Origin: Methanobacteriota archaeon | GTDB lineage: Archaea > Thermoplasmatota > Poseidoniia > Poseidoniales > Thalassarchaeaceae | Direction of reading: 5' to 3' | Assembly: GCA_014239955.1 (NCBI GenBank) | Contig: JAAZXW010000011.1 | Location: forward strand, 1-64,000 | DNA length: 64,000 nucleotides | In this document: in pieces, positions 1 through 51,022 of the stretch | Numbering within the stretch: the first letter of the stretch is position 1 | How the letters are laid out: each line of letters begins with the position of its first letter | Program-made: the position numbers and the translations under genes | The notes under the pieces: generated by a model | Database searches by the model: none | Seen by the model: the letters and a program-made list of their open reading frames with translations, nothing else | Told to the model about the DNA's origin: nothing

Positions 1-238
1 CAATGACGACCGCAACGGAAACCGCAATGACGACCGCAACGGAAACCGCAACGGAAACCGCAACGGAAACCGCAACGGAAACCGCAACGGAAACCGCAAC
101 GGAAACCGCAACGGAAACCGCAACGGAAACCGCAATGACGACCGCAATGATGGCCGCAGCAAGCAGGTGACCAAGTACCAAGACAAGCGAAAGGGAAGGT
201 CTCGTGGACCTCCCAAGAAGATAGACTCTAGGGCTTAG
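1..238 (+). CDS. 3' end of a gene encoding a low-complexity (NGNR/NDDR)n repeat protein; partial, the 5' end lies outside the window
   Basis: Frame 2 reads through the 12-bp repeats as NDDR-NGNR-...(NGNR)x9...NDGRSKQVTKYQDKRKGRSRGPPKKIDSRA, with stop TAG at 236-238; the tail is basic. Confidence 0.35.
   Translation, partial: NDDRNGNRNDDRNGNRNGNRNGNRNGNRNGNRNGNRNGNRNGNRNDDRNDGRSKQVTKYQDKRKGRSRGPPKKIDSRA
2..157. repeat. Tandem 12-bp direct repeat, about 13 units (AACGGAAACCGC x10 plus AATGACGACCGC / AATGATGGCCGC variants)
   Basis: Read directly: 9 consecutive identical units between 38 and 145, flanked by variant units. Confidence 0.9.
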
Positions 239-285: not shown

Positions 286-1035
286 TTGGTATCAATTCAA
301 ATACTAACCATTCTTGGTTTGCACGTGAGGTTATTCAGGTTCGACAACTCCATCGCAGTCCCGAGAAAATGGTTGACCCGTCATCAGATCAAGAGGTACA
401 AGGGCAGCACGCTCGGGATACTCCACGAGCCCGAGGAGGAAGGGCATTTCCTAGAGGCACTCGGGTCCCTGTCTGAGGGGGGGGCATATCTGAACATTGG
501 CGCTGCATGGGGGTACTACTCCTTACTCGCCAAGAAGACACGTCCAGATCTGGATGTTTTTGCAGTAGAGGCGCATCCGAAGATGTGTAGCAGGATATTC
601 GAGGGATCCATGATCAATGGGGTTAATGGAATTTCTGTTTTCAACTCCGCAGTGGTCGGAAAGGATGGGCTAAACGATGGCCCGATGAAGATAAAATTCG
701 GGTATGGGGCATCCGTTAGATCCGCAAACTCGGCAGAGGATAGTGATTCTATGATCGTCAAACTCGTCGATATGGATGGCCTTCTACAATCTGTGCCCAA
801 TTCTGACCTGCTAGTTAGCATGGACGTTCAGGGTTCGGAAGAAGGGATTTGCAGGGACCTAGCCGCCGACCCCAGCATGGGGGCTAGGATATCCACCATC
901 ATTGTAGGCACCCATGGTGCCGACATTCATGAATCGTGCAAGGGATTCCTAATGGAAGCCGGATTCTCGATAATATTGGACGAGCCGGCACCATTGGAAC
1001 AGCCAGACGGTATCATCTTGGCTTCTAGGCAGTAA
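286..1035 (+). CDS. FkbM-family methyltransferase (putative)
   Basis: GAYLNIGAAWGYYS resembles the FkbM SAM-binding motif (V/L-D/N-I-G-A-N-x-G); 249-aa ORF. Confidence 0.4.
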   Translation: MVSIQILTILGLHVRLFRFDNSIAVPRKWLTRHQIKRYKGSTLGILHEPEEEGHFLEALGSLSEGGAYLNIGAAWGYYSLLAKKTRPDLDVFAVEAHPKMCSRIFEGSMINGVNGISVFNSAVVGKDGLNDGPMKIKFGYGASVRSANSAEDSDSMIVKLVDMDGLLQSVPNSDLLVSMDVQGSEEGICRDLAADPSMGARISTIIVGTHGADIHESCKGFLMEAGFSIILDEPAPLEQPDGIILASRQ

Positions 1036-1069: not shown

Positions 1070-2728
1070 GTGGCTAGGGAGCTGATTCGACTCGAGGAGG
1101 TCCACAGGGCCTTCGGGCCTCTCACTGTTCTAGAGGGAGTCAACCTTCGCATAGACGAAGGAGATCGCATCGGTGTCATCGGGCATAACGGCTCGGGAAA
1201 AACCACCTTGCTTCGCACCATCAGCAACCAGGATCAAGACGTTGGCGACATCACATTCGCCCCAGCATTGAGGCTCGCCTTCCTGACACAGGTCCGCGAC
1301 ATCGACGACGAAGCCACTCTGGGCGAGGAGCTCAGTCGCAGGGGCCGGCAGTTCCTCGAGTTGGAGGAGGAGATTTCCGAAATCGAGGGAAGGATGGAAG
1401 AACCGTCGTTCTACGAGGGAGACTGGCAGCCTACAATGGAGAGATACCAGGAGCTGCAGAGCCTCATGGCTCGCTCCGGTGGCGGGGACGTCGCAGGGCA
1501 TGCAACTGAGATACTCAAGGCACTGAATCTGGATCAAAGCTCAATGGAGGTTCCTCTGAACTCGCTCTCCGGAGGGGAGCGCGCTAAGGTAGCCCTTGCC
1601 AGGCAGCTCGTCGGACTGGATCAGATTGACGTCTTCTTCTTGGACGAGCCAACAAACCATCTCGACTTCAACACCCTTGAGTGGCTGGAGAGGTTCCTGA
1701 ACAGGTTTGAGGGTGCACTGATGATAGTCAGTCACGACAGGTACTTCCTCGACAGGGTCTGCAACAACATCGCAGAGGTCCAGGATGCACACATTCGCGG
1801 TTACCCTGGGAACTACACATCCTACCTAAAGCAGAAGGAGATTTTCCTTCAGACCCTGAATGACAGGATAGAGAAGACTCAGAAGGAGATTAAGCGCCTG
1901 CAGGGTGCGATGCAGTCGATGAAGAGGTCCAACAAGTTCGACAAGTCGGTATCCCAGAAGCATTTCATGATCACGCGCTCCCAGAGGGAGCTGAAGTGGC
2001 TCAAGTCATTGAAACCAAGGAAGCGTCAGAGTCTGAACTTCAATCTACAGTCCGCGGAGAAGAGCAGCCTCGATGTCCTGGAGTTCCGCGATGCTAGTCT
2101 GTCATTCGACTCCCTATCGAGACCCATCTTCAAGGATCTGGTAGTGAGTGTCAGGAGAGGTCAGAAGATCGGCGTGATAGGTCCGAACGGTGTTGGTAAG
2201 ACTACCCTCCTCCGCCTCATTACCGGGGACTTGGAACTCGATTCAGGGAATCTAGAGATCAGTCCCGGGGTGCAAATCGGGTACTTCCACCAGGATCACA
2301 GAACTCTTGACTTCGACCTCACGCCGGTCGAGGAGGTCCGGAGACTCAAACCAAGGATGGACTATGGGGATCTGAGAGCCCTACTTGGGCAATTCCAGTT
2401 CACCAATGATATGGTCTCGACACCCCTCAGCAAGCTGAGTGGTGGTGAGAGGGCTAGGATAGCTCTCCTCCGGCTCCTCCTTGAGGAGAACAACATGCTG
2501 CTACTGGACGAGCCGACGAACCACCTCGACACGGATGCTAAGGAGGCACTAGAGATGGCGCTGACCGAGTTCGACGGGGGGATAATCACCGTGAGTCATG
2601 ACCGGTACTTTCTGGACAAGGTGTGTGATACAATTTGGGACTTGCAGGGAGATGGTAGCCTGGTGGTGTGGCCCGGTAATTACTCTGAGTACAAGAGCCG
2701 AACAATCTCGTCCACGCACAATAGTTAG
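1070..2728 (+). CDS. ABC-F family ATPase: two tandem ABC domains with no transmembrane domain and a basic inter-domain linker
   Basis: Walker A GHNGSGKTTLL and GPNGVGKTTLL; signatures LSGGERAKVALA and LSGGERARIALL; Walker B LDEPTNHLD twice; Lys/Arg-rich linker of about 90 aa; GTG start. Confidence 0.8.
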   Translation: MARELIRLEEVHRAFGPLTVLEGVNLRIDEGDRIGVIGHNGSGKTTLLRTISNQDQDVGDITFAPALRLAFLTQVRDIDDEATLGEELSRRGRQFLELEEEISEIEGRMEEPSFYEGDWQPTMERYQELQSLMARSGGGDVAGHATEILKALNLDQSSMEVPLNSLSGGERAKVALARQLVGLDQIDVFFLDEPTNHLDFNTLEWLERFLNRFEGALMIVSHDRYFLDRVCNNIAEVQDAHIRGYPGNYTSYLKQKEIFLQTLNDRIEKTQKEIKRLQGAMQSMKRSNKFDKSVSQKHFMITRSQRELKWLKSLKPRKRQSLNFNLQSAEKSSLDVLEFRDASLSFDSLSRPIFKDLVVSVRRGQKIGVIGPNGVGKTTLLRLITGDLELDSGNLEISPGVQIGYFHQDHRTLDFDLTPVEEVRRLKPRMDYGDLRALLGQFQFTNDMVSTPLSKLSGGERARIALLRLLLEENNMLLLDEPTNHLDTDAKEALEMALTEFDGGIITVSHDRYFLDKVCDTIWDLQGDGSLVVWPGNYSEYKSRTISSTHNS

Positions 2729-4506: not shown

Positions 4507-6276
4507 ATGCCCGAGGCACGGCACCCACTGGCCCGACTCATGACTCAGATGAGGGACCAGAGGGGGACAATCATCCTCGCATCAATTTGCTCCGTCCTGA
4601 ACAAGATATGGGACCTGGCACCTCCCGTCCTGATCGGGATGGCCATTGATGTAGTGCATCAACAGGAGGAGTCTTTCCTAGCTGACTACGGATACGTAGA
4701 TCCGTGGGTGCAGCTTCAGGTCCTCGCTGGCATCACAGTTGTAATCTGGGTCCTAGAGTCTCTTTTCCAGTACTTCTACGGGATCCTGTGGAGGAACCTA
4801 GCGCAGACCGCGCAGCACGAACTTAGAATGGATGCATACCGGCACATCCAGAACTTGGAGATGCAGTGGTTCTCCGAGCAGAGCACTGGCGGCCTCATGG
4901 CGATAATGAATGACGACGTCAACCAGCTCGAGAGGTTCCTAGACCACGGGGCCAACGACCTCCTGCAAGTGGGGACCACCGTTATCGTGGTAAGTGGAAT
5001 CATGTTCTCGCTCGCACCAGAGGTCGCGATTCTCGCGATTCTCCCGGTCCCAATCATCGTCGGGGGCTCGTTCCTCTACCAGAGGAGGATAGGGGCCCGC
5101 TACACCGAGGTCCGCAAGGAGGTGGCAGAGCTGAACGCCATCCTGAACAACAACCTGCAAGGAATCACCACGATCAAGTCGTTCACTGCTGAGGAGAGGG
5201 AGGCACAGAGGGTAAGTGAGGCATCCCAGTCATACAGGGATGCGAACAGGTCCGCCATCCAACTCTCCGCCTCGTTCGTACCGCTGATCAGGATGGCCAT
5301 CCTATTCGCCTTCACAGCAAACCTCCTCGTTGGCGGGAAGTATGCCCTCGAAGGGAAGATAGGCCTAGGGGAGTACTCAGTCATAGTGTTCATCACCCAA
5401 CGCCTACTATGGCCCCTCACCAGGCTTGGAGAGACCTTCGACCTTTACCAGAGGGCCATCGCATCCACAAGCAGGGTTCTCGACCTACTCGACACCGAGA
5501 TCGGAGTGGTCGAGGGCGATACCAGACTTGGGGGGGTCGAAGGTGACATCAAGTTCGAGGGCATCCGGTTCACATATCCCGGGAGGGAAGCCGTCCTGAG
5601 GGGTATCGACCTAGACGTGTCAGCAGGGAAGACAGTCGGCCTCGTGGGAGCGACCGGTTCCGGCAAGACGACCCTGGTACGACTTCTCCTCAGGTTCCAC
5701 GACCCGCTTGAGGGTAGTGTAACCTTGGATGGTCATGATGTCAGGGAACTCAAGCTAGACTCACTGAGGGGGGCGGTATCTCTGGTCAGTCAGACCACGA
5801 CCCTGTTCCCTGGGACGGTTAGGGACAACGTGCTCTATGGCAGACCAGAGGCCTCCGAAGAAGAGATGGTCGAGGCCGCCCGCATCGCAGAGGCGACCGG
5901 ATTCATCGATGAGCTTCCCGAGGGCTGGGGGACTAACATCGGGGAGGACGGTCACCGACTATCAGGGGGCCAGAGGCAGAGGTTAGCAATCGCCCGCGCA
6001 GTCCTGAAGGACGCACCCGTTCTGATCCTCGACGAGGCTACGAGTAATGTGGACAACGAGACTGAGGCAGCACTACAGCGCTCGATTGAGAGGATCTCAC
6101 GCGACCGGACTACCCTCATTATCGCCCACAGACTCTCCACTGTGAGGAACGCAGACACCATCGCGGTGATGGAGTGGGGCCAGATTACGGAGATGGGCAG
6201 CCATGACGAGCTCGTCTCCCAAGAAGGTCTGTATGCGAGGTTGTGGGCGGTCCAGACCGGGGAGGCATCGGAATGA
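4507..6276 (+). CDS. ABC exporter with fused permease and ATPase (MsbA/multidrug type)
   Basis: N-terminal six-helix TMD; C-terminal NBD with GATGSGKTTL, LSGGQRQRLAIARA and ILDEATS. Confidence 0.85.
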   Translation: MPEARHPLARLMTQMRDQRGTIILASICSVLNKIWDLAPPVLIGMAIDVVHQQEESFLADYGYVDPWVQLQVLAGITVVIWVLESLFQYFYGILWRNLAQTAQHELRMDAYRHIQNLEMQWFSEQSTGGLMAIMNDDVNQLERFLDHGANDLLQVGTTVIVVSGIMFSLAPEVAILAILPVPIIVGGSFLYQRRIGARYTEVRKEVAELNAILNNNLQGITTIKSFTAEEREAQRVSEASQSYRDANRSAIQLSASFVPLIRMAILFAFTANLLVGGKYALEGKIGLGEYSVIVFITQRLLWPLTRLGETFDLYQRAIASTSRVLDLLDTEIGVVEGDTRLGGVEGDIKFEGIRFTYPGREAVLRGIDLDVSAGKTVGLVGATGSGKTTLVRLLLRFHDPLEGSVTLDGHDVRELKLDSLRGAVSLVSQTTTLFPGTVRDNVLYGRPEASEEEMVEAARIAEATGFIDELPEGWGTNIGEDGHRLSGGQRQRLAIARAVLKDAPVLILDEATSNVDNETEAALQRSIERISRDRTTLIIAHRLSTVRNADTIAVMEWGQITEMGSHDELVSQEGLYARLWAVQTGEASE

Positions 6277-38733: not shown

Positions 38734-39945
38734 TTAGAGGGACTGCTTCAGACACTCCGCAAGGAACTCATACTCTTCGACACTGTTGTAAAGTTGTGCT
38801 GATATCCTGATGTATCTTCGGTTATGATGCCTCCATGGGAAAACAGGTACTTGGATTCCGAACTCATCTAGAAGGTAGTTGTGAAACGGATCCCCCTCCA
38901 TGCCCATGGGCCCTATCTCCACATCCCCAGGCATCTCTACTGATGCTATTGAGGAAACCAATGAATCAGGAACGGGTTCGGTTGTTCCAAGTGCATCACA
39001 GAGGATTTGCCTTCCCTCGAGGGCTAGTAACCTGTTTCTTTTCATTATTGCCGGCCACCCTCCTTCCACAAGTCCTTCTAGGAAATCAATTGCTAGCGGG
39101 ATACATAGCCAAGGTGTAGGATCTTGGGTCCCAGGCCAACCAAATTCGAACTCGAACTTTTCTTGGGCGGTCCCCTCGAAGCTTGCACCATGACTGATGC
39201 TAAGAGGCCTCACCACCTTCTTGCGATCGGTTCGAATGTGAAGGAAAGCAGAGCCTTTCGGTGTGCAGAGCCATTTGTGGCAATTACCTGTACAGTAGGC
39301 TGCACCTATGTCTCTCAGATCCAAAGGGACGATTCCCGGGCCATGCGCTGCATCAAGTAGGACATCAACGTCCACTTTCTGTAAGCTTTCGACAAGTTTC
39401 TCGAACGGCATCCTCAGTCCGGTGGCGCTGGTCACAGTGTCGATAAGTGCTAGAACGGTTCGTTCTGTTACAGCACCCATAACCAGATCAACTACTTCCT
39501 CAGTATTCTCCACTCTGAATGGGATTTCCACAACTACTGTCTCCGCACCTGCTCTCTCTGTCACGAAGTCGACCGCATTCCAGCATGCCTGATAGCTGTG
39601 ATTGGTTACGATAATCTCATCCCCTGGCTTGAGGTCAATGCTCCTGAGTACTGTGTTTACTCCTTCTGTAGTATTTTTCACGAAGGCCAACCCTTCTGGT
39701 TCGGCATTCATGAATTTTGCAAGTCTTCTGATTGAGGATCTCATCAGTGGGATGTAGTCCCTTTCAAAGAATCTGACCGGGTCGCTCTCGATCATCCCTC
39801 TGAGCCTTGTTTGCTCTTCAAGAATGGCGATGGGTGTGGCTCCGAAGGAGCCGTGATTCAGAAAACAAGTGTCCTCGGACAACATCCAGTGTTCAGCTAA
39901 TTCACTCCTCTGTGGCCTGTTCACACTAATATCTCCGGCCTCCAA
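38734..39945 (-). CDS. Class V (fold type I) PLP-dependent aminotransferase, isopenicillin-N-epimerase/cysteine-desulfurase-like
   Basis: FLNHGSFGATP N-terminus; a PLP-lysine region (CHKWL) in the AT-V arrangement. Confidence 0.6.
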   Translation of the reverse strand: MEAGDISVNRPQRSELAEHWMLSEDTCFLNHGSFGATPIAILEEQTRLRGMIESDPVRFFERDYIPLMRSSIRRLAKFMNAEPEGLAFVKNTTEGVNTVLRSIDLKPGDEIIVTNHSYQACWNAVDFVTERAGAETVVVEIPFRVENTEEVVDLVMGAVTERTVLALIDTVTSATGLRMPFEKLVESLQKVDVDVLLDAAHGPGIVPLDLRDIGAAYCTGNCHKWLCTPKGSAFLHIRTDRKKVVRPLSISHGASFEGTAQEKFEFEFGWPGTQDPTPWLCIPLAIDFLEGLVEGGWPAIMKRNRLLALEGRQILCDALGTTEPVPDSLVSSIASVEMPGDVEIGPMGMEGDPFHNYLLDEFGIQVPVFPWRHHNRRYIRISAQLYNSVEEYEFLAECLKQSL

Positions 39946-40607
39946 TCAACAGGTCCCAATGGCACTCTTCCAAGATTCTCCTCGCAAGTCAGGATTAGGC
40001 TCTTCTCCATCCTATCGACGTCTAGGGGCTGGCCTTCGTTGTCGTTCACATAACCCAGTTGTGAAAGGCTAGTATGCGTACCAGCTTCAATGCCGCAGAA
40101 CTCCAATCCTTCAACCCTGTTTTCAGGTGTGTCTATGTTGATGGATATCCCATGGCGACTAACCCAGTGTAGGAAAGAGAGCCCGATCGAGCAAATCTTG
40201 TGACCATCAACCCAGGCACCCTGCATCGCTTCGTCCTTGTAAGCTGAAATCCCGCATTCCAATAGGGCTGCTATCACCCAGTCTTCTAGCCTCCCGATAA
40301 TCCCTCTGATGCTCTGTTCCTCAATATCCCATTTCACAATTGGATATGCGACAAGCTGCCCAGGGCCATGCCAAGTAATGCCCCCTCCCCTGTCTGTGGG
40401 TGAAGTCGGATACCCTTCCACGATGACGTTGTCACGGACCGCCTTGGGTCCAATTGTCACTACTTCTGGGTGTTGGACAAATATCAGAGTGTCACTAATG
40501 TCGCCCGCTATCCTCTTCTTTTGTAGGTCCTTCATAGTCTGGGCCATTACGCGATAATCAACTACTCCGCATCTTAGAACGTTTATTCCGTCAATTCGAT
40601 CACTCAA
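39921..40607 (-). CDS. lipB: Octanoyl/lipoyl transferase (LipB-like)
   Basis: RGGGITWHGPGQLVAYPIV (LipB RGG..T.HGPGQ motif) and HKICSIGL (the K-I-x-x-x-G acyl-enzyme lysine region). Confidence 0.65.
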   Translation of the reverse strand: MSDRIDGINVLRCGVVDYRVMAQTMKDLQKKRIAGDISDTLIFVQHPEVVTIGPKAVRDNVIVEGYPTSPTDRGGGITWHGPGQLVAYPIVKWDIEEQSIRGIIGRLEDWVIAALLECGISAYKDEAMQGAWVDGHKICSIGLSFLHWVSRHGISINIDTPENRVEGLEFCGIEAGTHTSLSQLGYVNDNEGQPLDVDRMEKSLILTCEENLGRVPLGPVDWRPEILV

Positions 40608-42040
40608 CTGATGTGGATGGCATGTCCAAGGGTCTTGAGTACGCTCTCATGGAATGCCTCGGACATCGTGGGATGGGCATGAACCGTTCCAGCCACGTCC
40701 TCCAGAAGTGCTCCCATTTCGAGCGCCAATACGAATTCTGAGTGAAGCTCGGCTACATGGCTTCCTACAGCTTGAACTCCAAGAATTACGTGATCAGATT
40801 CCCTTGCCGTGACTCGAATGAAACCCCCGGTTTTTTCTGCCTCTAGGCTCAATGCCCTACCATTAGCCGCAAGTGGGAACTTGCCAACTATTACCTCCTC
40901 GCCCCTTTCCTTCGCTTCATCTGGGGTGAGGCCGACTGAAACGATCTCAGGCTCAGTGAAGACAATCGCGGGAATGGCAACTTTGTCGAATTCACGCTTG
41001 TGCCCGGCAATAATCTCTGCTACCATCTCCCCCTCTGCACTAGCCTTGTGGGCCAGCATAGGCTCACCTGAGACGTCACCAATGGCAAACACCCCGGGAA
41101 CCGATGTTCTGCATTGCCTGTCCGTTCTGATGAAACGCCCCGAGCCATCCATCCTTACTCCGGTGTTTTCTAGTCCCCATCCCTTGGTATTGGGCTTCCT
41201 CCCCACTGTGACTAGGACTTTGTCCACCTTCACCTTGTGCTCCAAGCCTTCTTTCTCAAAGGTCAACTCAACCTTTCTTGATGCACCCTTGCCCTTGACT
41301 TCTGCACCCCTTGCCAGGGAGTCTGTATGGATCGTCACCTTGTGTTTCTTTAGCCACATTTCCAACGGCCTCCTGATTTCTTTGTCCATTATTGCCAATA
41401 CGTTGCTCAAACCCTCAACGACAGTTACTTCAGCTCCAAGTTTTGCAAGTGCGCAACCCAACTCGAGGCCAATATAGCCCCCTCCAACAATTGCCACGCT
41501 CTTTGGTAGCGTATCCAGGTCCAATGCCCCAGTCGAGGAGAGCACGAACTCTTCGTCACATGGCATGAATGGCAAGTCTATGTGGCTTGAACCAGTGGCG
41601 ATTATGACATTCTCTGCTTCTATCTTTACCTTGTCACCATCATTGTCTACGGTGCAACTCTTGGGGCCATCAAAACTGGCCCACCCTTTGATCAAATTCG
41701 CTCCAGCAGCTTTCAGAAGACCCTCGACACCCTTGTTCAGCCTATCCACAATGGAATCCTTCCAAGACACCAGTGCACCCATGTCGACCTCCGCCTCGCC
41801 ACTCACGGTTAGGCCCATGTGGCCCCCCTCTGCAGAATGCTGGCGTAGAGATTCGAACCTCTCTGCAGCGTGTATGATCGCCTTGCTAGGTATACACCCC
41901 CTAATCAGGCATGTCCCACCCGCTTTGTCACCCTCAACTACAATTGTATCTAGGCCTAGTTGCGCTGACCTGATTCCCGCTACGTAGCCACCCGGGCCAG
42001 CCCCAACTACCAAGACTTGGCACTTGCGTGATTCAGCCAT
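40604..42040 (-). CDS. lpdA: Dihydrolipoyl dehydrogenase (E3)
   Basis: GAGPGGYVAGIRSAQLG (FAD), redox disulfide GTCLIRGCIPSK, NAD site, and interface-domain His. Confidence 0.9.
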   Translation of the reverse strand: MAESRKCQVLVVGAGPGGYVAGIRSAQLGLDTIVVEGDKAGGTCLIRGCIPSKAIIHAAERFESLRQHSAEGGHMGLTVSGEAEVDMGALVSWKDSIVDRLNKGVEGLLKAAGANLIKGWASFDGPKSCTVDNDGDKVKIEAENVIIATGSSHIDLPFMPCDEEFVLSSTGALDLDTLPKSVAIVGGGYIGLELGCALAKLGAEVTVVEGLSNVLAIMDKEIRRPLEMWLKKHKVTIHTDSLARGAEVKGKGASRKVELTFEKEGLEHKVKVDKVLVTVGRKPNTKGWGLENTGVRMDGSGRFIRTDRQCRTSVPGVFAIGDVSGEPMLAHKASAEGEMVAEIIAGHKREFDKVAIPAIVFTEPEIVSVGLTPDEAKERGEEVIVGKFPLAANGRALSLEAEKTGGFIRVTARESDHVILGVQAVGSHVAELHSEFVLALEMGALLEDVAGTVHAHPTMSEAFHESVLKTLGHAIHIS

Positions 42041-42049
42041 TTTAGCCCC

Positions 42050-43276
42050 TCACATGAAAATGAGTGCTGGTGTTTCCAGCATTCTCTTGAGGTCCTGTAT
42101 TAGAGATGCACCGTCCGCACCATCGACCACTCTGTGGTCAAAGGCACTTGATAGATTCATGATTCTCCGAACTACTATCTCCCCATTTCTGACAACGGGC
42201 ATCTCTCTCGCCTTGTGGACACCTAGGATGGCAACCTCTGGGTGGTTGATGATTGGTGTTGCTCCCAAGCCACCTTCGCGTCCCAGACTTGTTATCGTGA
42301 AAGTGGAACCAGTTAACTCGTCCAGGCTTGCGCTTCCATTTTTTGCAGATCCAGATACTCTCTGCATTTCTAATGCAGTGCTCCAGATATCCATGGACTC
42401 GACGTGCTTCACCACTGGGACATACAGGCCCCGTTCTGTCTGAGTAGCAATTCCTAGGTTCACTGCTCCCTGCCTGTTCACCACTCCCCCTTCGTCATCG
42501 AAGTGGGCATTACATTCGGGATGATCTGGCATGATCTTTGCAAGAGTCAGCATGATGAATGGGAGATAAGTCAACTTCGGCTGAGTTTCGTCCTTTGTTG
42601 TATTCAGAACCCGCCTCAACGACTCTAATTCGGTAATATCCACTTCTTCGAAATATGAGAAGTGAGGTATTCTACTCTTAGAGAGGCTCATTTGCTCTGA
42701 TATTTTCCTCATCAGTCCGACAACTTTCACCGGCGTCACTTCGGTTCTTTTCACTGAGTAGGCCATTGGCGGAGCCCCAGAAATTGCACCTCCTGCAGCA
42801 ATGAAGGCATCCAAATCAGCGTGCCTAACTCTTCCAGCGGGGCCCGAGCCTCTAACGTTGGATAGATCAACATCATTTTCCCTAGCACGCTTCCTTACTG
42901 CAGGACTCGCAAGGACTCGTCCGATGTCAGCTTTCATCGACGCCACAGGGACTGGAGTTTCTGGGGCTGGAGTCGGAGCTGTAGGCTCGATTTCCTCTTC
43001 TGCACTCTTTTCTTCCTCCTCGGGTACTTCTCCTCCCTCGGAGTCAATCTCTAGGAGAGTTTTCCCCACAGCAATCATGTCCCCAACCCCTCCGCTGAGT
43101 GAACTGATTACTCCACTGGTTGGAGAAGGTATGGTGACTGTTGCCTTATCCGTCATAACATCCACAAGAGGGTCATCCTCGGATACTGATTCTCCAACCG
43201 AAACGTGCCATTGGACTACTTCTCCTTCTACTACCCCCTCTCCGATGTCAGGCAACTTAAACACGAATTTTCCCAT
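42050..43276 (-). CDS. Dihydrolipoamide acyltransferase (E2) of a 2-oxoacid dehydrogenase complex
   Basis: Lipoyl domain (DIGEGVVEGEVVQW...VMTDKATV); Pro/Glu/Ala linker; catalytic DHRVVDGA. Confidence 0.85.
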   Translation of the reverse strand: MGKFVFKLPDIGEGVVEGEVVQWHVSVGESVSEDDPLVDVMTDKATVTIPSPTSGVISSLSGGVGDMIAVGKTLLEIDSEGGEVPEEEEKSAEEEIEPTAPTPAPETPVPVASMKADIGRVLASPAVRKRARENDVDLSNVRGSGPAGRVRHADLDAFIAAGGAISGAPPMAYSVKRTEVTPVKVVGLMRKISEQMSLSKSRIPHFSYFEEVDITELESLRRVLNTTKDETQPKLTYLPFIMLTLAKIMPDHPECNAHFDDEGGVVNRQGAVNLGIATQTERGLYVPVVKHVESMDIWSTALEMQRVSGSAKNGSASLDELTGSTFTITSLGREGGLGATPIINHPEVAILGVHKAREMPVVRNGEIVVRRIMNLSSAFDHRVVDGADGASLIQDLKRMLETPALIFM

Positions 43277-43277
43277 T

Positions 43278-44297
43278 CTAATCCTCCTGTGTTTTTGCTA
43301 TTGCCGCCGCGATTCTAGATGGTCCGGGCATGTAATCCCATTCAGTAGTATGGGGGAACGGAGTGTCCCAACCGGCAACCCTCTCAATGGGGGCCTCAAG
43401 GTGATAGAAGCACCTCTCTTGGATGGAAGCTGCCATTTCCGCACCGAATCCACTAGTCTTCGGGGCTTCGTGGACGATCACGCACCTTCCTGTCTTCTCA
43501 ATGGAACTTACAACTGCATCTCTGTCCCATGGCACTAGGGTCTGCATGTCTATCAGATCGCATGAGACGCTGCTGTCCTTGATTGCTTGTTCACAAACAT
43601 GGACCATGGCACCCCATGAAATTACCGTGCAATCATCCCCTTGTTTCGCTAATCTTGCTTGCCCAAGCGGGATTTTATAGTGACTCTCGGGAACTTCTGC
43701 CTCCGGGTGATCTGACCAAGTGGGTACGTTGTGGGGGTCTCCGTAGAAAGGCCCCCTATAGCATCTCTTGGGTTCGAAGAAAACAACTGGATCGTTGCAC
43801 TCAACTGCACTAATTAGCAACCCTTTGGCATTGTAAGGTGTCGAGCAGTAAACAACTTTCAGCCCGGGTGTGTGTGTGAATTGAGACTCGGGGGATTGTG
43901 AATGGTGGTGCCCCCCTCTGATCCCACCACCAGCCGGGGTTCGAAGGGTGACTGGTGACCAAAACTCGCCACCAGACCTATGCCTAACTTTGGCCATCTC
44001 ATTTACAATCTGGTCATAAGCAGGGAAGATGTAGTCGGCGAACTGAATTTCCACTATAGGCCTGAGGCCATTAAGGCCCATCCCAAATGCAGTTGCTGCA
44101 ATTCCGCCTTCCGACAAGGGGGAGTCGAAAACACGATGTTCACCATGCTTCTCTTGTAACCCATCAGTCGTCCTGAAGACTCCCCCGAAGTATCCAACGT
44201 CCTCTCCAAATACGATGACATCAGAGTCATTCTCAAGCAAGTTATCAAGCGCACTATTTAGGGATTGAATCATATTCATGTTGGTCATTTCAACCAC
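43278..44297 (-). CDS. 2-oxoacid dehydrogenase E1 component, beta subunit
   Basis: Transketolase-like pyrimidine-binding and C-terminal domains. Confidence 0.8.
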   Translation of the reverse strand: MVEMTNMNMIQSLNSALDNLLENDSDVIVFGEDVGYFGGVFRTTDGLQEKHGEHRVFDSPLSEGGIAATAFGMGLNGLRPIVEIQFADYIFPAYDQIVNEMAKVRHRSGGEFWSPVTLRTPAGGGIRGGHHHSQSPESQFTHTPGLKVVYCSTPYNAKGLLISAVECNDPVVFFEPKRCYRGPFYGDPHNVPTWSDHPEAEVPESHYKIPLGQARLAKQGDDCTVISWGAMVHVCEQAIKDSSVSCDLIDMQTLVPWDRDAVVSSIEKTGRCVIVHEAPKTSGFGAEMAASIQERCFYHLEAPIERVAGWDTPFPHTTEWDYMPGPSRIAAAIAKTQED

Positions 44298-45525
44298 CCA
44301 TTAGTTCGTCATGCTGTTCTTTCAGATGCCATGGCATCTCTTCGTAAACCTCGGTGAAAATTGTATCGGCCGAGGGGTATGGGCCATTGGCCAGATCACC
44401 GAATTTGACGGCTTCCTTGTAAGCATCCACTACCTCGGTATCGATCCTTTCCTCCATTTCTTTGTGTCTATCCTCGCTCCACTCTCCCAAATTAATCAGG
44501 TGTTCTTTCAGCCTAGTTATCGGATCCCCGCCTGGCCATTTCGTATGTTCGTCCTTTGGCCTGTATCTGCTGGGATCGTCACTGCTACTGTGCGCTCCCG
44601 TTCTGTAAGTCAGAACCTCAATGTGGGTCGCCCCGGATCCCGAAGATGCCCTTTCGCGTGCCCATTTGGTTACTGAATAGAGTGCTAGGAAGTCATTCCC
44701 ATCAACTCTAATCGATGCAAGCCCGTAGGGAATTCCCCTGCATGCGAAGTTATCCATTCCTGTGGCGAAGTTAGCATGTGTCGAAATTGCCCACTGATTG
44801 TTTACCACATTGAGAATTACCGGTGCTTTGAATACACTTGCGAAGTTTAACGCATAGTGGTAATCTCCTTCAGCGCTCGCACCATCTCCGATCCACGTGA
44901 TGGTCACTTCGTCCAGTCCCTTGTAACTTGACGCGAGACCTACGCCAACCGCCTGGCTGAATTGTGTTCCAACAGGGCTAGAAATCGAAATAAATCTGCC
45001 CTCTCGATATGAATAGTGTACTGGCATTTGCCTCCCCTTGATGTTGTCCTCTATGTTTCCAATGCAGTGACAAATCATGCTAACCATCCCCCTCCCTCTG
45101 ACGAATTGCGCCCCTGGTTGCCTGTATGTCGGGAATATCCAATCCTGTTCTTCCAATGCCATAGTTTGCGCAATCGCCACTGCCTCCTCGCCTAACGACC
45201 TCATGTAGAATGAAAGCAAACCTGTCCGTTGCATCTTCATCATCCTGTCATCGAATATCCTCAACCTCGCCATGTGCTCTAGCCCGGTTCGGAGTTGATC
45301 TGCAGAGAGTCCGGGATCCCATTCTCCAGAGGCATTACCATCGTCATCGAGCACCCTTACTAGCCCGTTTGCTAGGTCTACAGTGTCCTCGGATCGACAA
45401 TTCTTTGGATCGGGCTTCGGCAAGTCACCAGGTTTCCACGGCCAGTCCTCGAAGCTCGCTTGCTCCCCGGGCCTGAAAGGCGCATCGGGGACGTGGATTT
45501 TTCCATCATTGCCCTTAGACCCCAC
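44290..45525 (-). CDS. 2-oxoacid dehydrogenase E1 component, alpha subunit (TPP-binding)
   Basis: TPP motif GDGASAEGDYHYALNFA; 8-nt overlap with the beta subunit. Confidence 0.8.
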   Translation of the reverse strand: MGSKGNDGKIHVPDAPFRPGEQASFEDWPWKPGDLPKPDPKNCRSEDTVDLANGLVRVLDDDGNASGEWDPGLSADQLRTGLEHMARLRIFDDRMMKMQRTGLLSFYMRSLGEEAVAIAQTMALEEQDWIFPTYRQPGAQFVRGRGMVSMICHCIGNIEDNIKGRQMPVHYSYREGRFISISSPVGTQFSQAVGVGLASSYKGLDEVTITWIGDGASAEGDYHYALNFASVFKAPVILNVVNNQWAISTHANFATGMDNFACRGIPYGLASIRVDGNDFLALYSVTKWARERASSGSGATHIEVLTYRTGAHSSSDDPSRYRPKDEHTKWPGGDPITRLKEHLINLGEWSEDRHKEMEERIDTEVVDAYKEAVKFGDLANGPYPSADTIFTEVYEEMPWHLKEQHDELMGG

Positions 45526-45543
45526 GATGATTTCCTCCTGTAA

Positions 45544-46638
45544 TCATGAATTATCAACCTCTGCTGCAACCAATCTCTCCGATGACAGGATGCGACTAAC
45601 TGCCGAACCAGTCGAGTCACGAGTAACCACTGGTTCGCCCCCGATTGCCTCTTCCCATAGTAGACCTGCCCTATAGCTCGATCTAACTAGGGGTCCGCTA
45701 GCCACTGCACTGAAACCTAGTTCCCTAGCGAAGCTATCCCAATCTGCAAATCTATCTGGCTCCGGAAACCTATCTACTGGGAGGTGTCTGAAGCTAGGTT
45801 GTAGATACTGCCCTAGTGTAATCATGTCCACTCCGGCCCCACGAATCATTTCCATTGCCTCTATGATCTCTTCATCTGTTTCTCCCAAACCAACCATCAG
45901 ACTAGTCTTTGTAAGCAGGTCAGGACGAATTTCCTTTGCCGTTCTCAGAATCTCAAGTGACTGAACAAATGAAGCTCTGTGATCCCGAACAACAATGTCT
46001 AGTCGAGGGACACATTCGACATTGTGTGCAAATACTCTCAGAGGTAATCCATCCAACAGTGCATCCAGGGCCTCGAGATTTCCGTCTAAATCTGAACAAA
46101 GTAGCTCCAATCCGACGTTTGGATTATTCTTCGCAACTTCTATGATACAATCTCTGTAGTGAATCGCCCCGCCGTCTGGTAGGTCATCTCTGTTCACTAC
46201 CGTGATTACTGCATAGCTAAGGCCCATTTTGGATACTGCATCAGCTAACTCACGAGGCTCTTCAGGATTGAGTTTCGAAGGGGTCCTAACAGTTCCGACT
46301 GCACAGAATCTGCACCCTCTGGTGCAGACTTCTCCCGCAATCATGAAGGTCGCCGTACCCCTGCCCCAACAGTCGTGAACATTTGGGCACCTTGCCTCTT
46401 CGCAGACAGTATTCAACCCGTGAGCCAACACATTCTCCTTTGTTTCGTTGTACCTCGACTGAGCTAGACCCGTTGGAAGAGACGTCTTGAACCAAGAAGG
46501 GAGACGCTTCCTCATTTTTTTCCTCTTATTTAGAGGGCTAATTGTAGTCGCACTTCCACAACCTCCAGACACCTCTGTTTCAGAGTCGATGATTGGCAAC
46601 CGCCTCTCCATCGTAATCAACGGATAGAAGAACGACAT
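45544..46638 (-). CDS. lipA: Lipoyl synthase (radical SAM)
   Basis: CEEARCPNVHDCW (auxiliary cluster) and CTRGCRFCAV (radical-SAM CxxxCxxC). Confidence 0.9.
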   Translation of the reverse strand: MSFFYPLITMERRLPIIDSETEVSGGCGSATTISPLNKRKKMRKRLPSWFKTSLPTGLAQSRYNETKENVLAHGLNTVCEEARCPNVHDCWGRGTATFMIAGEVCTRGCRFCAVGTVRTPSKLNPEEPRELADAVSKMGLSYAVITVVNRDDLPDGGAIHYRDCIIEVAKNNPNVGLELLCSDLDGNLEALDALLDGLPLRVFAHNVECVPRLDIVVRDHRASFVQSLEILRTAKEIRPDLLTKTSLMVGLGETDEEIIEAMEMIRGAGVDMITLGQYLQPSFRHLPVDRFPEPDRFADWDSFARELGFSAVASGPLVRSSYRAGLLWEEAIGGEPVVTRDSTGSAVSRILSSERLVAAEVDNS

Positions 46639-48085: not shown

Positions 48086-51022
48086 GTGCGAAAACGCAAC
48101 ACCGACCCCTCTGTACGTCAAAGTACACTCGTTACTCTCTCACTGGCGTTATTGATGCTGATTCCCGTGGGCTTCGATTTGGAGGCTTCTGAACTGCCCG
48201 ATTCCACGATCCTCAATGCTTCCGAAAGCGCACCAGACGCAAACCTGTACAAACTATACTTCGTCTCGTCCGGACAGAACCAGACTTCTGGAATGGACGG
48301 CCTAATTAGTACCGAACCGCCCGAGGCAGATCAGGATCAGGAAGTAGCCAGTGCTCTGGATGATGACGTCCAATTTATGTCTATTTCATTAATGTCATCG
48401 ATGGAATTTTTTGGCCGGAAGCACCATACAGATAACTCATACTACATTCCGGTTGAACTATTCCTGAAGTCCGAAGGATCCCAGAATTCTAACGTCGATT
48501 GGACCGTCTCAGTAATGACTTCTGAGAGGACTGTTGGCTCCAAAATTTACTCTGGTTCAGTATGCTCTTCTTCATTCGGAAGCAGTTGCGACTTCGACCA
48601 CGAGATTATCGATGTCGAAATAGGCAACTCAGAATCATTCCAAGTTGGAAAGAATGAGAGACTGATTATCAAAGTTAGAGCCAGCATGTCTGGATGCGAC
48701 AGCAGTGATAGCCCATTCGGGGGGTCTTGTACTGCGGACGTCGCCTTCAACAATATCGACAATGAGCCAAACAAATTCTCCAAGATGGAGGCAAACGGCA
48801 ATGCCCTGATGAATAGCATCATTGTTGTCCAGAGGGAAGGGGCAAACATAGCAGAGGGTTCGGAGATTGACTGGTACCCGAATGACATCGTCGAAGACAG
48901 AGAGATGCAGTTCTCGATAGATGCAATTAGTGCATTCGGAAGGGCTGATATCGCCAGGGTAGACATCCTGATGAGGGGTCCGGATGGAAACTACGAGGTC
49001 GACGAGAGGATTACTGGCGACATGGAGGAGATAGAAGACTCCAGCACAGGAATCTTCGGCAAGTTCCCCTATACGTACAATAGCGGGCTCAGCCCCGGTG
49101 AGTATGCAGTGATACTCAAGGTCCGGGATGTCGGTGGAAACGAGATTGAAATTGAGCACGAGCCCATCGAGATGCACCAGTTTGGAGTATCTCTGAAGCA
49201 TAGGTTCGATCGTTCGGTAGAGTACTTCGCACCAGGTAAGGTAACTCCTATCCCCATGGTACTTGTTCATAGAGGCGATTCGACAAAGTCGATGAACGTA
49301 GAATTAGAGGTGCTGACTAATCTAGGAAGCTCTTGGTTGGTTGAGTTCGATTCTCCTGCAGGATATGAGATGAGCTCTGGAGGGTCAGTCATTAATCCGA
49401 CAGTGACTCTAACCGCACCAGATGATCTAACTGGCATGCCGAAGAAGATCGAGATCAGAGCGGTTGCAGAGGCAGATGTGGAGGGGGTAATTTCGGTAGT
49501 CCATCAGGACACTCTCGTACTGGTTGTAGAGAAGGTTGATGTCTATCAGCCCCCCGTGGTCTCAATCTGGTCAGACGACCACAAGATACCGATAGCGAAT
49601 TCTTCCAGGGGTGATGCTCTGGATTCTACCATCCCCAGATTTGCCGAATATGGCGAATTCAACCCCTTCATATTGGAGATTTTCAATACTGGTTTCGATG
49701 CCGATAACTTCCGGATTGACATTCTCAAGAGATCGAAGTCAATCTTCCAGTTGCACGACAATCTCACAGGTCAGCGGATACTTCAGGACGAGGGGGATGG
49801 GACTTTCCACACTCCTTTATTGGAGAGGCACAGCACAAAGGTACTGATTCTCGGTGTGAAGCCAAGCTTGGATAGAGAGGACGAGGACATCGGTGAGATT
49901 GAGATAGAAGTAATCAGCGGCGGCAACGCATCATCATCAACAACCATTTCATTCACAATTCAGAGAACATACGGCATAAGGGGGGAGGTCTCACAAGACT
50001 GCGACGGAACTCCTCTCGGACACATGAAGGTGGCACTATGTGCACCCGGACAGGACAGACCGGTCTTGGACTTCAGGACCAGATTGACGAATAGTGAAGA
50101 CGACTTGGAGGCAGCATCTTGGTGGCTATTGCAAAACCCTGCTTCGTTGAATGAGAACACCGATCGAAACTCAGCCTACGGGCAATGGGAATTCAGGATC
50201 ACAAACTCAGACGGAGAGGCCGTCCCTCGAGTCTCCCTGGGTCCGGGGGACTTCACTGAGGTCTACATCAGCGTAACTCTGACGAACCAGGTAGAGGTCG
50301 GCAACCATACTGTTTTCTTGAGAATTTCCGAGGACATAGAAGACGACGATCCAAGATATTTCGATCTCCCGATGACATTCGAAATTGAAGCAGATCAACC
50401 AATGCTGGAGATCGTCCAAGTTTCCCAGAATACAAAACTTGCACCTGGTAATGACTACTCGATTCAAATGAAGGTGAAGAACGAAGGAAACAGTCCTATG
50501 ACCGTTCTCCTTGAAGCTGACGTTGATGAGAATGGATGGGATGTCAGTATCGGCGGCCTGTCGGGTTCGCCCCTGATTGAAATCGAAGCGTTCGACGAAG
50601 CCACCTTCACAGTCGAAATCTCCGTCTCAAGTTCCGCAAATAATGGGGATTCAATTCCGATTTCTGTAACTGCAACCCCACTGGATACGGATCAGAGCTT
50701 CTCAGAGTCTTTAACGGCTAAGTTCACTTTGACAGTAATTGTTGAGATAGGCTCTTTCGTTGACATCATAGTTAACGAAATGTCTCACCCCAGACCAATC
50801 ACTCTTGTTTTGGTGCTAGTAAGCGTACTATTGCTGTTTGCAGGTGTTCAGAGCAGGCTCAATAGGAGAAGATGGGCAGCACAGATGAGAGCGATAGAGT
50901 CACTTTCTGAGGATGAAACAGAGTCTCAAGAAAACACGCCAGAGATACCTGCCCCAGTTACAGTTATGGATGAGCCGAAGGGTGTGGAAAGATACGACGA
51001 TGACGATGTAGAGCTGATGTAA
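48086..51022 (+). CDS. Large cell-surface protein (978 aa): N-terminal signal/anchor, beta-rich extracellular region, C-terminal TM helix and an acidic cytoplasmic tail
   Basis: GTG start; N-terminal hydrophobic LVTLSLALLMLIPVGF; C-terminal ITLVLVLVSVLLLFAGV followed by RLNRRRW and an Asp/Glu-rich tail. Confidence 0.5.
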   Translation: MRKRNTDPSVRQSTLVTLSLALLMLIPVGFDLEASELPDSTILNASESAPDANLYKLYFVSSGQNQTSGMDGLISTEPPEADQDQEVASALDDDVQFMSISLMSSMEFFGRKHHTDNSYYIPVELFLKSEGSQNSNVDWTVSVMTSERTVGSKIYSGSVCSSSFGSSCDFDHEIIDVEIGNSESFQVGKNERLIIKVRASMSGCDSSDSPFGGSCTADVAFNNIDNEPNKFSKMEANGNALMNSIIVVQREGANIAEGSEIDWYPNDIVEDREMQFSIDAISAFGRADIARVDILMRGPDGNYEVDERITGDMEEIEDSSTGIFGKFPYTYNSGLSPGEYAVILKVRDVGGNEIEIEHEPIEMHQFGVSLKHRFDRSVEYFAPGKVTPIPMVLVHRGDSTKSMNVELEVLTNLGSSWLVEFDSPAGYEMSSGGSVINPTVTLTAPDDLTGMPKKIEIRAVAEADVEGVISVVHQDTLVLVVEKVDVYQPPVVSIWSDDHKIPIANSSRGDALDSTIPRFAEYGEFNPFILEIFNTGFDADNFRIDILKRSKSIFQLHDNLTGQRILQDEGDGTFHTPLLERHSTKVLILGVKPSLDREDEDIGEIEIEVISGGNASSSTTISFTIQRTYGIRGEVSQDCDGTPLGHMKVALCAPGQDRPVLDFRTRLTNSEDDLEAASWWLLQNPASLNENTDRNSAYGQWEFRITNSDGEAVPRVSLGPGDFTEVYISVTLTNQVEVGNHTVFLRISEDIEDDDPRYFDLPMTFEIEADQPMLEIVQVSQNTKLAPGNDYSIQMKVKNEGNSPMTVLLEADVDENGWDVSIGGLSGSPLIEIEAFDEATFTVEISVSSSANNGDSIPISVTATPLDTDQSFSESLTAKFTLTVIVEIGSFVDIIVNEMSHPRPITLVLVLVSVLLLFAGVQSRLNRRRWAAQMRAIESLSEDETESQENTPEIPAPVTVMDEPKGVERYDDDDVELM

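Follow-up and report, generated by a model that had tools for sequence, protein, structure and literature searches.

The ABC-F protein encoded at positions 1070-2728 of the forward strand in a 64,000-nucleotide stretch of archaeal DNA (GenBank assembly GCA_014239955.1, contig JAAZXW010000011.1, positions 1 to 64,000; hereafter, the window) belongs to a conserved archaeal clade that includes Poseidoniales, Methanomassiliicoccales and many uncultured lineages of the phylum Thermoplasmatota, and is not a one-off bacterial import. The best explanation of the data, to which we assign a probability of roughly 60%, is that this protein is a catalytically competent, soluble ABC-F of an archaeal lineage that would function as an ATP-driven exit-site factor on archaeal ribosomes. 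Our observations concern the family membership of the protein, its motifs and predicted fold, its clade, the purifying selection that acts on it and its old residence in Poseidoniales; the proposed action at the ribosomal exit site follows from the analogy with EttA, YbiT, Uup and the eukaryotic ABC-Fs.

The gene is complete, with a GTG start and 552 encoded amino acids (aa) followed by a stop codon, and was delineated using the list of open reading frames (ORFs), Pfam, NCBIfam, sequence matches in the Protein Data Bank (PDB), a structure model and Foldseek. The GTG start at 1070 is backed by the homologues, nearly all of which are 545-558 aa long and share the N-terminus M-A/V-R-E-L-I. The first nucleotide-binding domain (NBD1; aa 1-246, positions 1070-1807, forward strand as are all parts of the gene) contains the Walker A motif GHNGSGKT (38-45), the signature LSGGE (166-170), the Walker B motif with the catalytic glutamate, FLDEP (190-194), and the H-loop SHDR (221-224). 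Within NBD1 lies the arm subdomain (aa 85-137, positions 1322-1480), an acidic alpha-helical hairpin with a net charge of -8 that is formed in the model by helices 93-110 and 120-135 and aligns with the arm of EttA. The inter-domain linker, that is, the P-site tRNA interaction motif (PtIM; aa 247-334, positions 1808-2071), is supported by the Pfam domain ABC_tran_Xtn and by the model, in which it consists of helices 249-286 and 292-314; it has a net charge of +14, with 21 lysines and arginines among its 88 residues, and is 6-8 residues longer than in most relatives. The second domain, NBD2 (aa 335-536, positions 2072-2677), carries the Walker A motif GPNGVGKT (371-378), the signature LSGGE (456-460), the Walker B motif LLDEP (478-482) and the H-loop SHDR (509-512). 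The remaining C-terminal tail (positions 2678-2728) is short and poorly conserved, with a column identity of 0.55. A C-terminal extension, the presence of which had been raised for checking, is not there: 42 residues follow the NBD2 H-loop, compared to about 100 in other Thermoplasmatota and about 141 in Uup and bacterial representatives. In an alignment of 30 Poseidoniales sequences, the Walker A and B motifs, signature, catalytic glutamate and H-loop of both NBDs are invariant, and so are residues M284, K285, N288, K289, D291, K292, S295 and K297 at the tip of the linker.

The assignment of this protein to the ABC-F family is supported at the level of domains, full-length models and structure. 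The Pfam scan detected two ABC_tran domains (E=1.7e-45) along with the ABC-F linker domain ABC_tran_Xtn (PF12848; residues 236-297, 35.4 bits against a cutoff of 25.9), and yielded neither an ABC_membrane match indicative of a transmembrane domain nor a Fer4 or RLI match indicative of an iron-sulphur domain. Among the curated NCBIfam models, the only one passed was the generic ABC-F model NF000355 (423.1 bits against a cutoff of 380). In the search of sequences with solved structures, each of the best 25 matches was an ABC-F or an eEF3-type ATPase of the ribosome, with YbiT (1.6e-78) and EttA (4e-78) at the top; human ABCF1 (249 bits) and yeast Arb1 (217 bits) were no nearer than the bacterial paralogues. 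The AlphaFold model built with 63 homologues (pLDDT 84.7, pTM 0.76) is a soluble alpha/beta protein with an arm hairpin and a long linker hairpin, and its top 25 Foldseek matches in the PDB are all ABC-Fs, mostly in ribosome complexes, with TM scores of 0.72-0.75 against ribosome-bound EttA, Uup, YbiT and YheS, and 0.37 against free, open EttA. An importer ATPase fusion was rejected given that importer models scored 143-152 bits, far under the ABC-F models, and so was an ABCE1/RLI identity (PRK13409, 143.2 against 469; no Fer4 or RLI domain). The sole ABC gene nearby (4507-6276) encodes a complete exporter, in which membrane and ATPase domains are both present. The Pfam, NCBIfam, PDB-sequence and Foldseek results thus agree with what had been proposed from the nucleotide sequence, namely, a soluble two-NBD protein with a lysine- and arginine-rich linker that is an ABC-F rather than an importer fusion or ABCE1.

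Within the family, the protein fits no named subfamily, be it EttA, Uup, YbiT, YheS or the resistance types. In BLASTP comparisons, it is about equally distant from EttA, YbiT, YheS, Uup and OptrA (30-33% identity, 244-268 bits). Assignment to EttA was rejected by two models (NF008775, 376.6 against 599; TIGR03719, 369.3 against 806.75), and assignments to Uup, YbiT and YheS were rejected by scores of 328.7 against 900, 321.4 against 762 and 277 against 917, respectively, in addition to the lack of a C-terminal domain like those of Uup and YheS. The antibiotic-resistance (ARE) subfamilies likewise failed, with 183-307 bits in the specific models against cutoffs of 680-1450 and no extended linker loop in the protein. 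The scheme of Murina et al. would place it in 'YdiF', described there as a paraphyletic repository of sequences that could not be classified (Murina et al. 2019, PMC6723617).

The contig is that of a Marine Group II archaeon of the family Thalassarchaeaceae, order Poseidoniales, phylum Thermoplasmatota. Archaeal markers in the same window include aTrm56, class-I LysRS, NOG1, aRF1 and an XPD-type helicase, so that the description of the host as an archaeal genome with archaeal translation factors stands, with the qualification that the aIF2-beta-like ORF was recognised by eye only. The GC content is even over the ABC-F gene and its surroundings. ABCE1 was not found within the 64-kb window. The protein database search returned, from marine metagenomes, one protein with 100% identity and hundreds of relatives with 73-98%, and those relatives that are named appear as 'Euryarchaeota archaeon', 'Candidatus Thalassarchaeaceae archaeon' or 'Ca. 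Thalassarchaeum sp.'.

A species-level scan, with one genome per GTDB species, identified 111 genomes with a relative, the best 80 of which were retrieved as loci. These best 80 of the 111 all come from Poseidoniales metagenome-assembled genomes (MAGs) or single-cell genomes, represent both families of the order and show 58-97% identity to the query. When 1.84 billion cluster representatives were searched exhaustively with a profile, a single full-length cluster at 57% identity (708 bits) was found; beyond this cluster, the maximum was 39% identity and 397 bits, and no bacterial protein exceeded 39%. The source of the 57% cluster is Ca. Poseidonia, a member of the other family of Poseidoniales, and therefore the gene is carried by both families. 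In many loci from both families, the gene is accompanied by a flanking block that consists of an RRM protein, a radical-SAM enzyme, a UDG-family protein, an ORF of about 600 aa (cluster 12) and one of about 1,100 aa (cluster 7), with slight variation among loci in the position of the ABC-F relative to the block. That this block is common to both families argues for the inheritance of the ABC-F gene from the ancestor of Poseidoniales. The flanking genes sampled in Poseidoniales loci also include archaeal phosphopantothenate synthetase and DUF373. In the sequence-only reading, the gene looked like a bacterial acquisition, and as an acquisition by this genome this part of the reading is not supported, on four counts: the exclusive origin of the 80 retrieved loci from Poseidoniales, the shared gene block, the identity of at most 39% outside the order and the grouping with Thermoplasmatota.

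The ABC-F is usually a single-copy gene in the retrieved genomes. In XB_MAG309, it is present on two contigs (L016 and L049; 79% and 81% identity to the query), so that either the two copies are paralogues or the bin combines two strains. Viral contigs yielded no close relative, and neither did plasmids, where every match had less than 60% identity and a bacterial name.

Bootstrap analysis, a shared insertion and profile comparison are three independent results that agree on the existence of an archaeal clade. In a neighbour-joining tree of 165 sequences, Marine Group II was monophyletic in 100 of 100 bootstraps, with the sister position alternating between two small groups of proteins of about 600 aa, one of which holds RefSeq proteins of Methanomethylophilus alvi (Methanomassiliicoccales lineage). 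In a neighbour-joining tree of 207 sequences, which added the relatives of P0126 described next, Marine Group II and two other Thermoplasmatota groups came together in 93 of 100 bootstraps. A search seeded with P0126, a protein of the other of the two small groups, produced a continuous series of about 600-aa proteins that descends from 94% to 35% identity; all 18 source-named proteins in this series are archaeal (named 'Thermoplasmatota', 'Thermoplasmata', 'Euryarchaeota' or 'Methanobacteriota archaeon'), and the first bacterial name, Gaiellaceae, appears at 35%. The archaeal assignment of the P0126 group rests on these 18 source-given names together with the RefSeq M. alvi proteins, the gene context of the two P0126-family contigs (L089 and L090) having provided no diagnostic archaeal signal, and many of the archaeal assignments in the clade analysis rest on MAG labels.

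The marker of the clade is a two-residue insertion in NBD1, at about G182-L183 (positions 1613-1618), between the signature helix and Walker B. In the alignment of the tree set, it is present in 47 of the 47 archaeal sequences, in none of the 152 bacterial sequences and in none of the 8 named references; a count of the spacing between motifs confirmed this pattern and matched in 7 of the 8 references. Three proteins nested inside the main Thermoplasmatota group (P0377, P0379 and P0347) are without the two residues; these appear to be secondary losses of the marker. Marine Group II sequences scored equally well or better with a profile of the other archaeal proteins than with a profile of the nearest bacterial ones (+0.4 to +44 bits), and the eight bacterial references all did the reverse (-18 to -192 bits). 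The sister of the archaeal clade varies, with EttA/Uup and a few unnamed sequences in this position in about 25 of 53 replicates, and because it shifts between bootstraps, we name no bacterial donor. Given the presence of the gene throughout the order and its grouping with Thermoplasmatota, any bacterial transfer was therefore ancient and took place before the radiation of these lineages.

The archaeal proteins also differ at their C-termini. P0126 and P0298 possess a small C-terminal domain in approximately the last 55 residues (e.g. 'PYVVRKSFRDYESGKRYSTGETVLVTGGE...'; alignment A2, columns 600-720), with no Pfam match on record, and this domain of the other Thermoplasmatota ABC-Fs is distinct from the coiled-coil extension of Uup and YheS. 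As judged from the alignment, the Marine Group II ABC-F is a shortened form that has lost the C-terminal domain kept by its archaeal relatives.

Against two close relatives, dN/dS is about 0.03, which indicates strong purifying selection. Furthermore, the mean column identity of the arm (0.79) and the linker (0.77) is not far from that of the ATPase cores (0.80-0.85). This conservation, together with the charge pattern, is what would be expected of a working RNA-contacting factor rather than a decaying import.

ABC-F proteins dock in the ribosomal exit site in bacteria and eukaryotes. Under the model that we favour, ATP would close the two NBDs, and the closed, ATP-bound ABC-F would occupy the vacant exit (E) site of the archaeal ribosome. 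In this position, the acidic arm would touch the L1 stalk, and the basic linker hairpin would extend to the acceptor stem of the P-site tRNA and the peptidyl-transferase centre; the peptidyl-tRNA on slow or stalled ribosomes could thereby be stabilised or re-positioned, and ATP hydrolysis would then free the ABC-F from the ribosome. In E. coli, four ABC-F paralogues each ease the translation of particular difficult nascent chains (PMC11162784). For the broader proposition that an ABC-F has been present in Thermoplasmatota since before the split of Poseidoniales and Methanomassiliicoccales, serving as an exit-site translation factor alongside aIF5A, we would put the chances at about even.

Several points weigh against this interpretation and its evolutionary part. 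The profile advantage for the protein encoded in the window itself is small, at +4 bits. The trees are neighbour-joining trees on simple corrected distances rather than maximum likelihood trees, bacteria are represented in them by the nearest matches of the queries, and they leave out the eukaryotic ABC-Fs and the named YdiF references. The branching inside the archaeal clade is weak, with Marine Group II joining the main group in 48 of 100 bootstraps and the Methanomassiliicoccales-like group in 30 of 100, and because of this weak order, repeated transfer among the archaeal lineages is possible. The neighbours of the gene are ordinary housekeeping genes, with no functional link except for the frequent DEAD-box helicase. 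Finally, binding of the archaeal ABC-F to the ribosome is something we infer.

Among the competing explanations, the one that fares best, unlikely as we consider it, is a role in ribosome biogenesis or quality control on free large subunits, comparable to that of yeast Arb1/ABCF2 and possibly performed together with the DEAD-box helicase, instead of a role in elongation. A gene for such a helicase is adjacent to or near the ABC-F gene in about 17 of the 80 loci, in three arrangements and including this window, and the structural matches include the 60S-bound yeast Arb1 (TM 0.66/0.81). However, the helicase link is not universal and is missing from the most widely shared gene block, the sequence scores higher against EttA and YbiT (267-268 bits) than against Arb1 (217 bits), and the EttA-like arm and linker are typical of proteins that bind complete ribosomes.

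A somewhat weaker case, which we regard as quite improbable, can be made for an ARE-type ABC-F that shields the ribosome from compounds binding to the peptidyl-transferase centre or the tunnel. PGAP gives some orthologues the name 'ribosomal protection-like ABC-F family protein', which derives from NF000355, the only curated model passed. However, the E. coli housekeeping proteins YbiT (431 bits), YheS (432) and Uup (418) pass this model as well (EttA scores 376.6 against the cutoff of 380), and therefore the PGAP name is uninformative on antibiotic resistance. OptrA is among the top BLASTP references (268 bits), and given that its linker is no longer than those of housekeeping ABC-Fs, a short linker is compatible with protection. 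Nevertheless, the specific models for Vga (307 of 725), Msr (289 of 680), Lsa (249 of 750) and OptrA (260 of 1450) remain far under their cutoffs, and the linker tip has no long insertion such as the 33 residues of MsrE. Moreover, the gene is mostly single-copy, old and strongly constrained, it lies amid housekeeping genes, and no close relative was found on viral contigs or among the plasmid matches described above.

A non-ribosomal role, either as a protein-partnered regulator similar to Gcn20/ABCF3 or in a DNA-directed activity as proposed for Uup, is slightly less probable still. The DNA binding of Uup is mediated by its C-terminal domain, and Marine Group II proteins are without such a domain. 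The 'ABCF3' label that JGI and KEGG attach to many members would fit a regulator, but it is generic and equally present on unrelated proteins at about 35-39% identity in the same search. The functions of ABC-Fs are indeed diverse (PMC6723617); still, no conserved partner gene was found among the examined loci. The last alternative, a recent transfer from bacteria or the mis-binning of a bacterial contig as archaeal, draws on the overwhelmingly bacterial and eukaryotic make-up of the family (PMC6723617) and on immediate neighbours, such as the GST-like gene, that occur only in relatives with at least 93% identity, and is refuted by the archaeal markers and uniform GC content of the window, the independent Poseidoniales origin of all 80 retrieved loci with their archaeal-type flanking genes, the gap to bacterial proteins at 39% identity or less and the synteny block common to both families.

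A survey published in 2019 reported ABC-Fs as missing from almost all Archaea, the exceptions being four Methanomassiliicoccales genomes, and predicted that more would appear (PMC6723617); its results imply that cultured Thermoplasmatales are without the gene; a 2026 review states that ABC-Fs occur in all three domains. In the searchable literature, we found no mention of an ABC-F in Poseidoniales or Marine Group II, nor any treatment of archaeal ABC-Fs as a group. Thus, the ABC-F call itself, made by automatic annotation, and the presence of ABC-Fs in one order of Thermoplasmatota (2019) are already known; the new elements are the order-wide, constrained Marine Group II lineage, the single Thermoplasmatota clade with its diagnostic insertion and the loss of the C-terminal domain by Marine Group II.

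The conserved and strongly constrained ABC-F occurs in archaea that are abundant in the marine plankton. Since some Methanomassiliicoccales are available in culture, the question of whether archaeal ribosomes are served by exit-site ABC ATPases can be addressed in a concrete system. Should the protein prove to be a resident exit-site factor, ABC-Fs would be a three-domain class of translation factors, and archaea that rank among the most abundant in the surface ocean would depend on one. A more practical implication is that matches to NF000355, archaeal ones included, are counted as antibiotic-resistance genes in metagenome surveys without real evidence, because the only model they pass is named 'ribosomal protection-like'. 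ABC-F type ribosomal protection has been reported among the resistance genes of a MAG set that includes Thermoplasmatota (PMC10979853).

The gene neighbourhood was considered as a functional clue and given up, since the immediate neighbours are found only in relatives with at least 93% identity and the wider neighbours are unrelated housekeeping genes. The window opens with the 3' end of the DEAD-box RNA helicase gene (positions 2-238, forward strand), which is cut by the window edge and was recognised from its translation and the resemblance of its (NGNR)n tail to tails in related loci, where similar repeat-rich, basic tails are found on DEAD/Helicase_C ORFs. This tail is encoded by a 12-bp tandem repeat (AACGGAAACCGC). 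A 249-aa ORF (286-1035, forward strand) separates the helicase from the ABC-F and has no Pfam match; it occurs elsewhere only in two close relatives (L003 and L006) and, because of this restriction, looks like a recent insertion at this spot. The GST-like gene, small membrane proteins and the ABC exporter beside the ABC-F are likewise common only to relatives with at least 93% identity.

Directly upstream of the ABC-F in 17 Thalassarchaeaceae loci (including L018, L020, L024, L026-L029, L038 and L041) is a bacterial-type, MetK-type S-adenosylmethionine synthetase (PF00438, PF02772, PF02773), which may be another bacterial-like gene in these archaea. The flanking block shared by both families contains a 442-aa protein (L061:92-1420; cluster 8 elsewhere) with a zinc ribbon, an RRM_1 domain and RGG-rich stretches. 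Further along the window, a full 2-oxoacid dehydrogenase set (E1 alpha, E1 beta, E2 and E3) is encoded together with lipoyl synthase and lipoate-protein ligase (38734-46638, reverse strand). Two long forward-strand ORFs, one of 978 aa with a sub-threshold Pfam match only (48086-51022) and one of 2987 aa that is strongly acidic (51099-60062; D+E 14.6%, K+R 3.5%), may encode surface proteins. The possibility that the ABC-F aids the translation of poly-acidic proteins was dropped, the acidic 2987-aa neighbour having no run of four or more acidic residues.

Among the characterized systems, ABCE1/RLI resembles the Marine Group II protein as a soluble twin-ABC ATPase acting on ribosomes, but the similarity is confined to NBD2 (about 1e-27), and the N-terminal iron-sulphur domain of ABCE1 has no counterpart here. 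ABCE1, moreover, acts at the factor-binding site of the ribosome and not at the exit site. The ARE ABC-Fs (Msr, Vga, Lsa, Sal, OptrA and PoxtA) share the family and the fold but are only 25-31% identical, and, unlike them, the Marine Group II gene is chromosomal, conserved across the order and without an extended linker loop; MsrE, in addition, has no arm and carries the 33-residue insertion at the linker tip. YbiT, Uup and YheS have the same architecture and fold, and YbiT is the top sequence match in the PDB, but identity is 30-31%, and Uup and YheS carry a C-terminal extension of about 100 residues. E. coli EttA (energy-dependent translational throttle A) is of nearly equal size (555 against 552 aa) and likewise has an arm within NBD1 and a linker with a short tip and lacks a C-terminal domain, and in its ribosome-bound form it is the best Foldseek match (E=1.9e-47, TM 0.73). 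EttA differs, however, in overall sequence (33% identity), in the sequence of the linker tip and in the absence of the two-residue insertion, and the bootstraps place EttA/Uup as sister of the archaeal clade no more than about half of the time. The Methanomassiliicoccales ABC-F, which Murina et al. classed as 'YdiF' (PMC6723617) and which shows about 34% identity, belongs to the same phylum and, in 93 of 100 bootstraps, the same clade, and shares with the Marine Group II protein the two-residue insertion, the arm and a linker of similar length. The Methanomassiliicoccales and other Thermoplasmatota proteins are distinguished by a length of about 600 aa that includes the extra C-terminal domain of about 55 residues, whereas the Marine Group II proteins are without this domain and have a linker that is some 6-7 residues longer than that of Methanomassiliicoccales.

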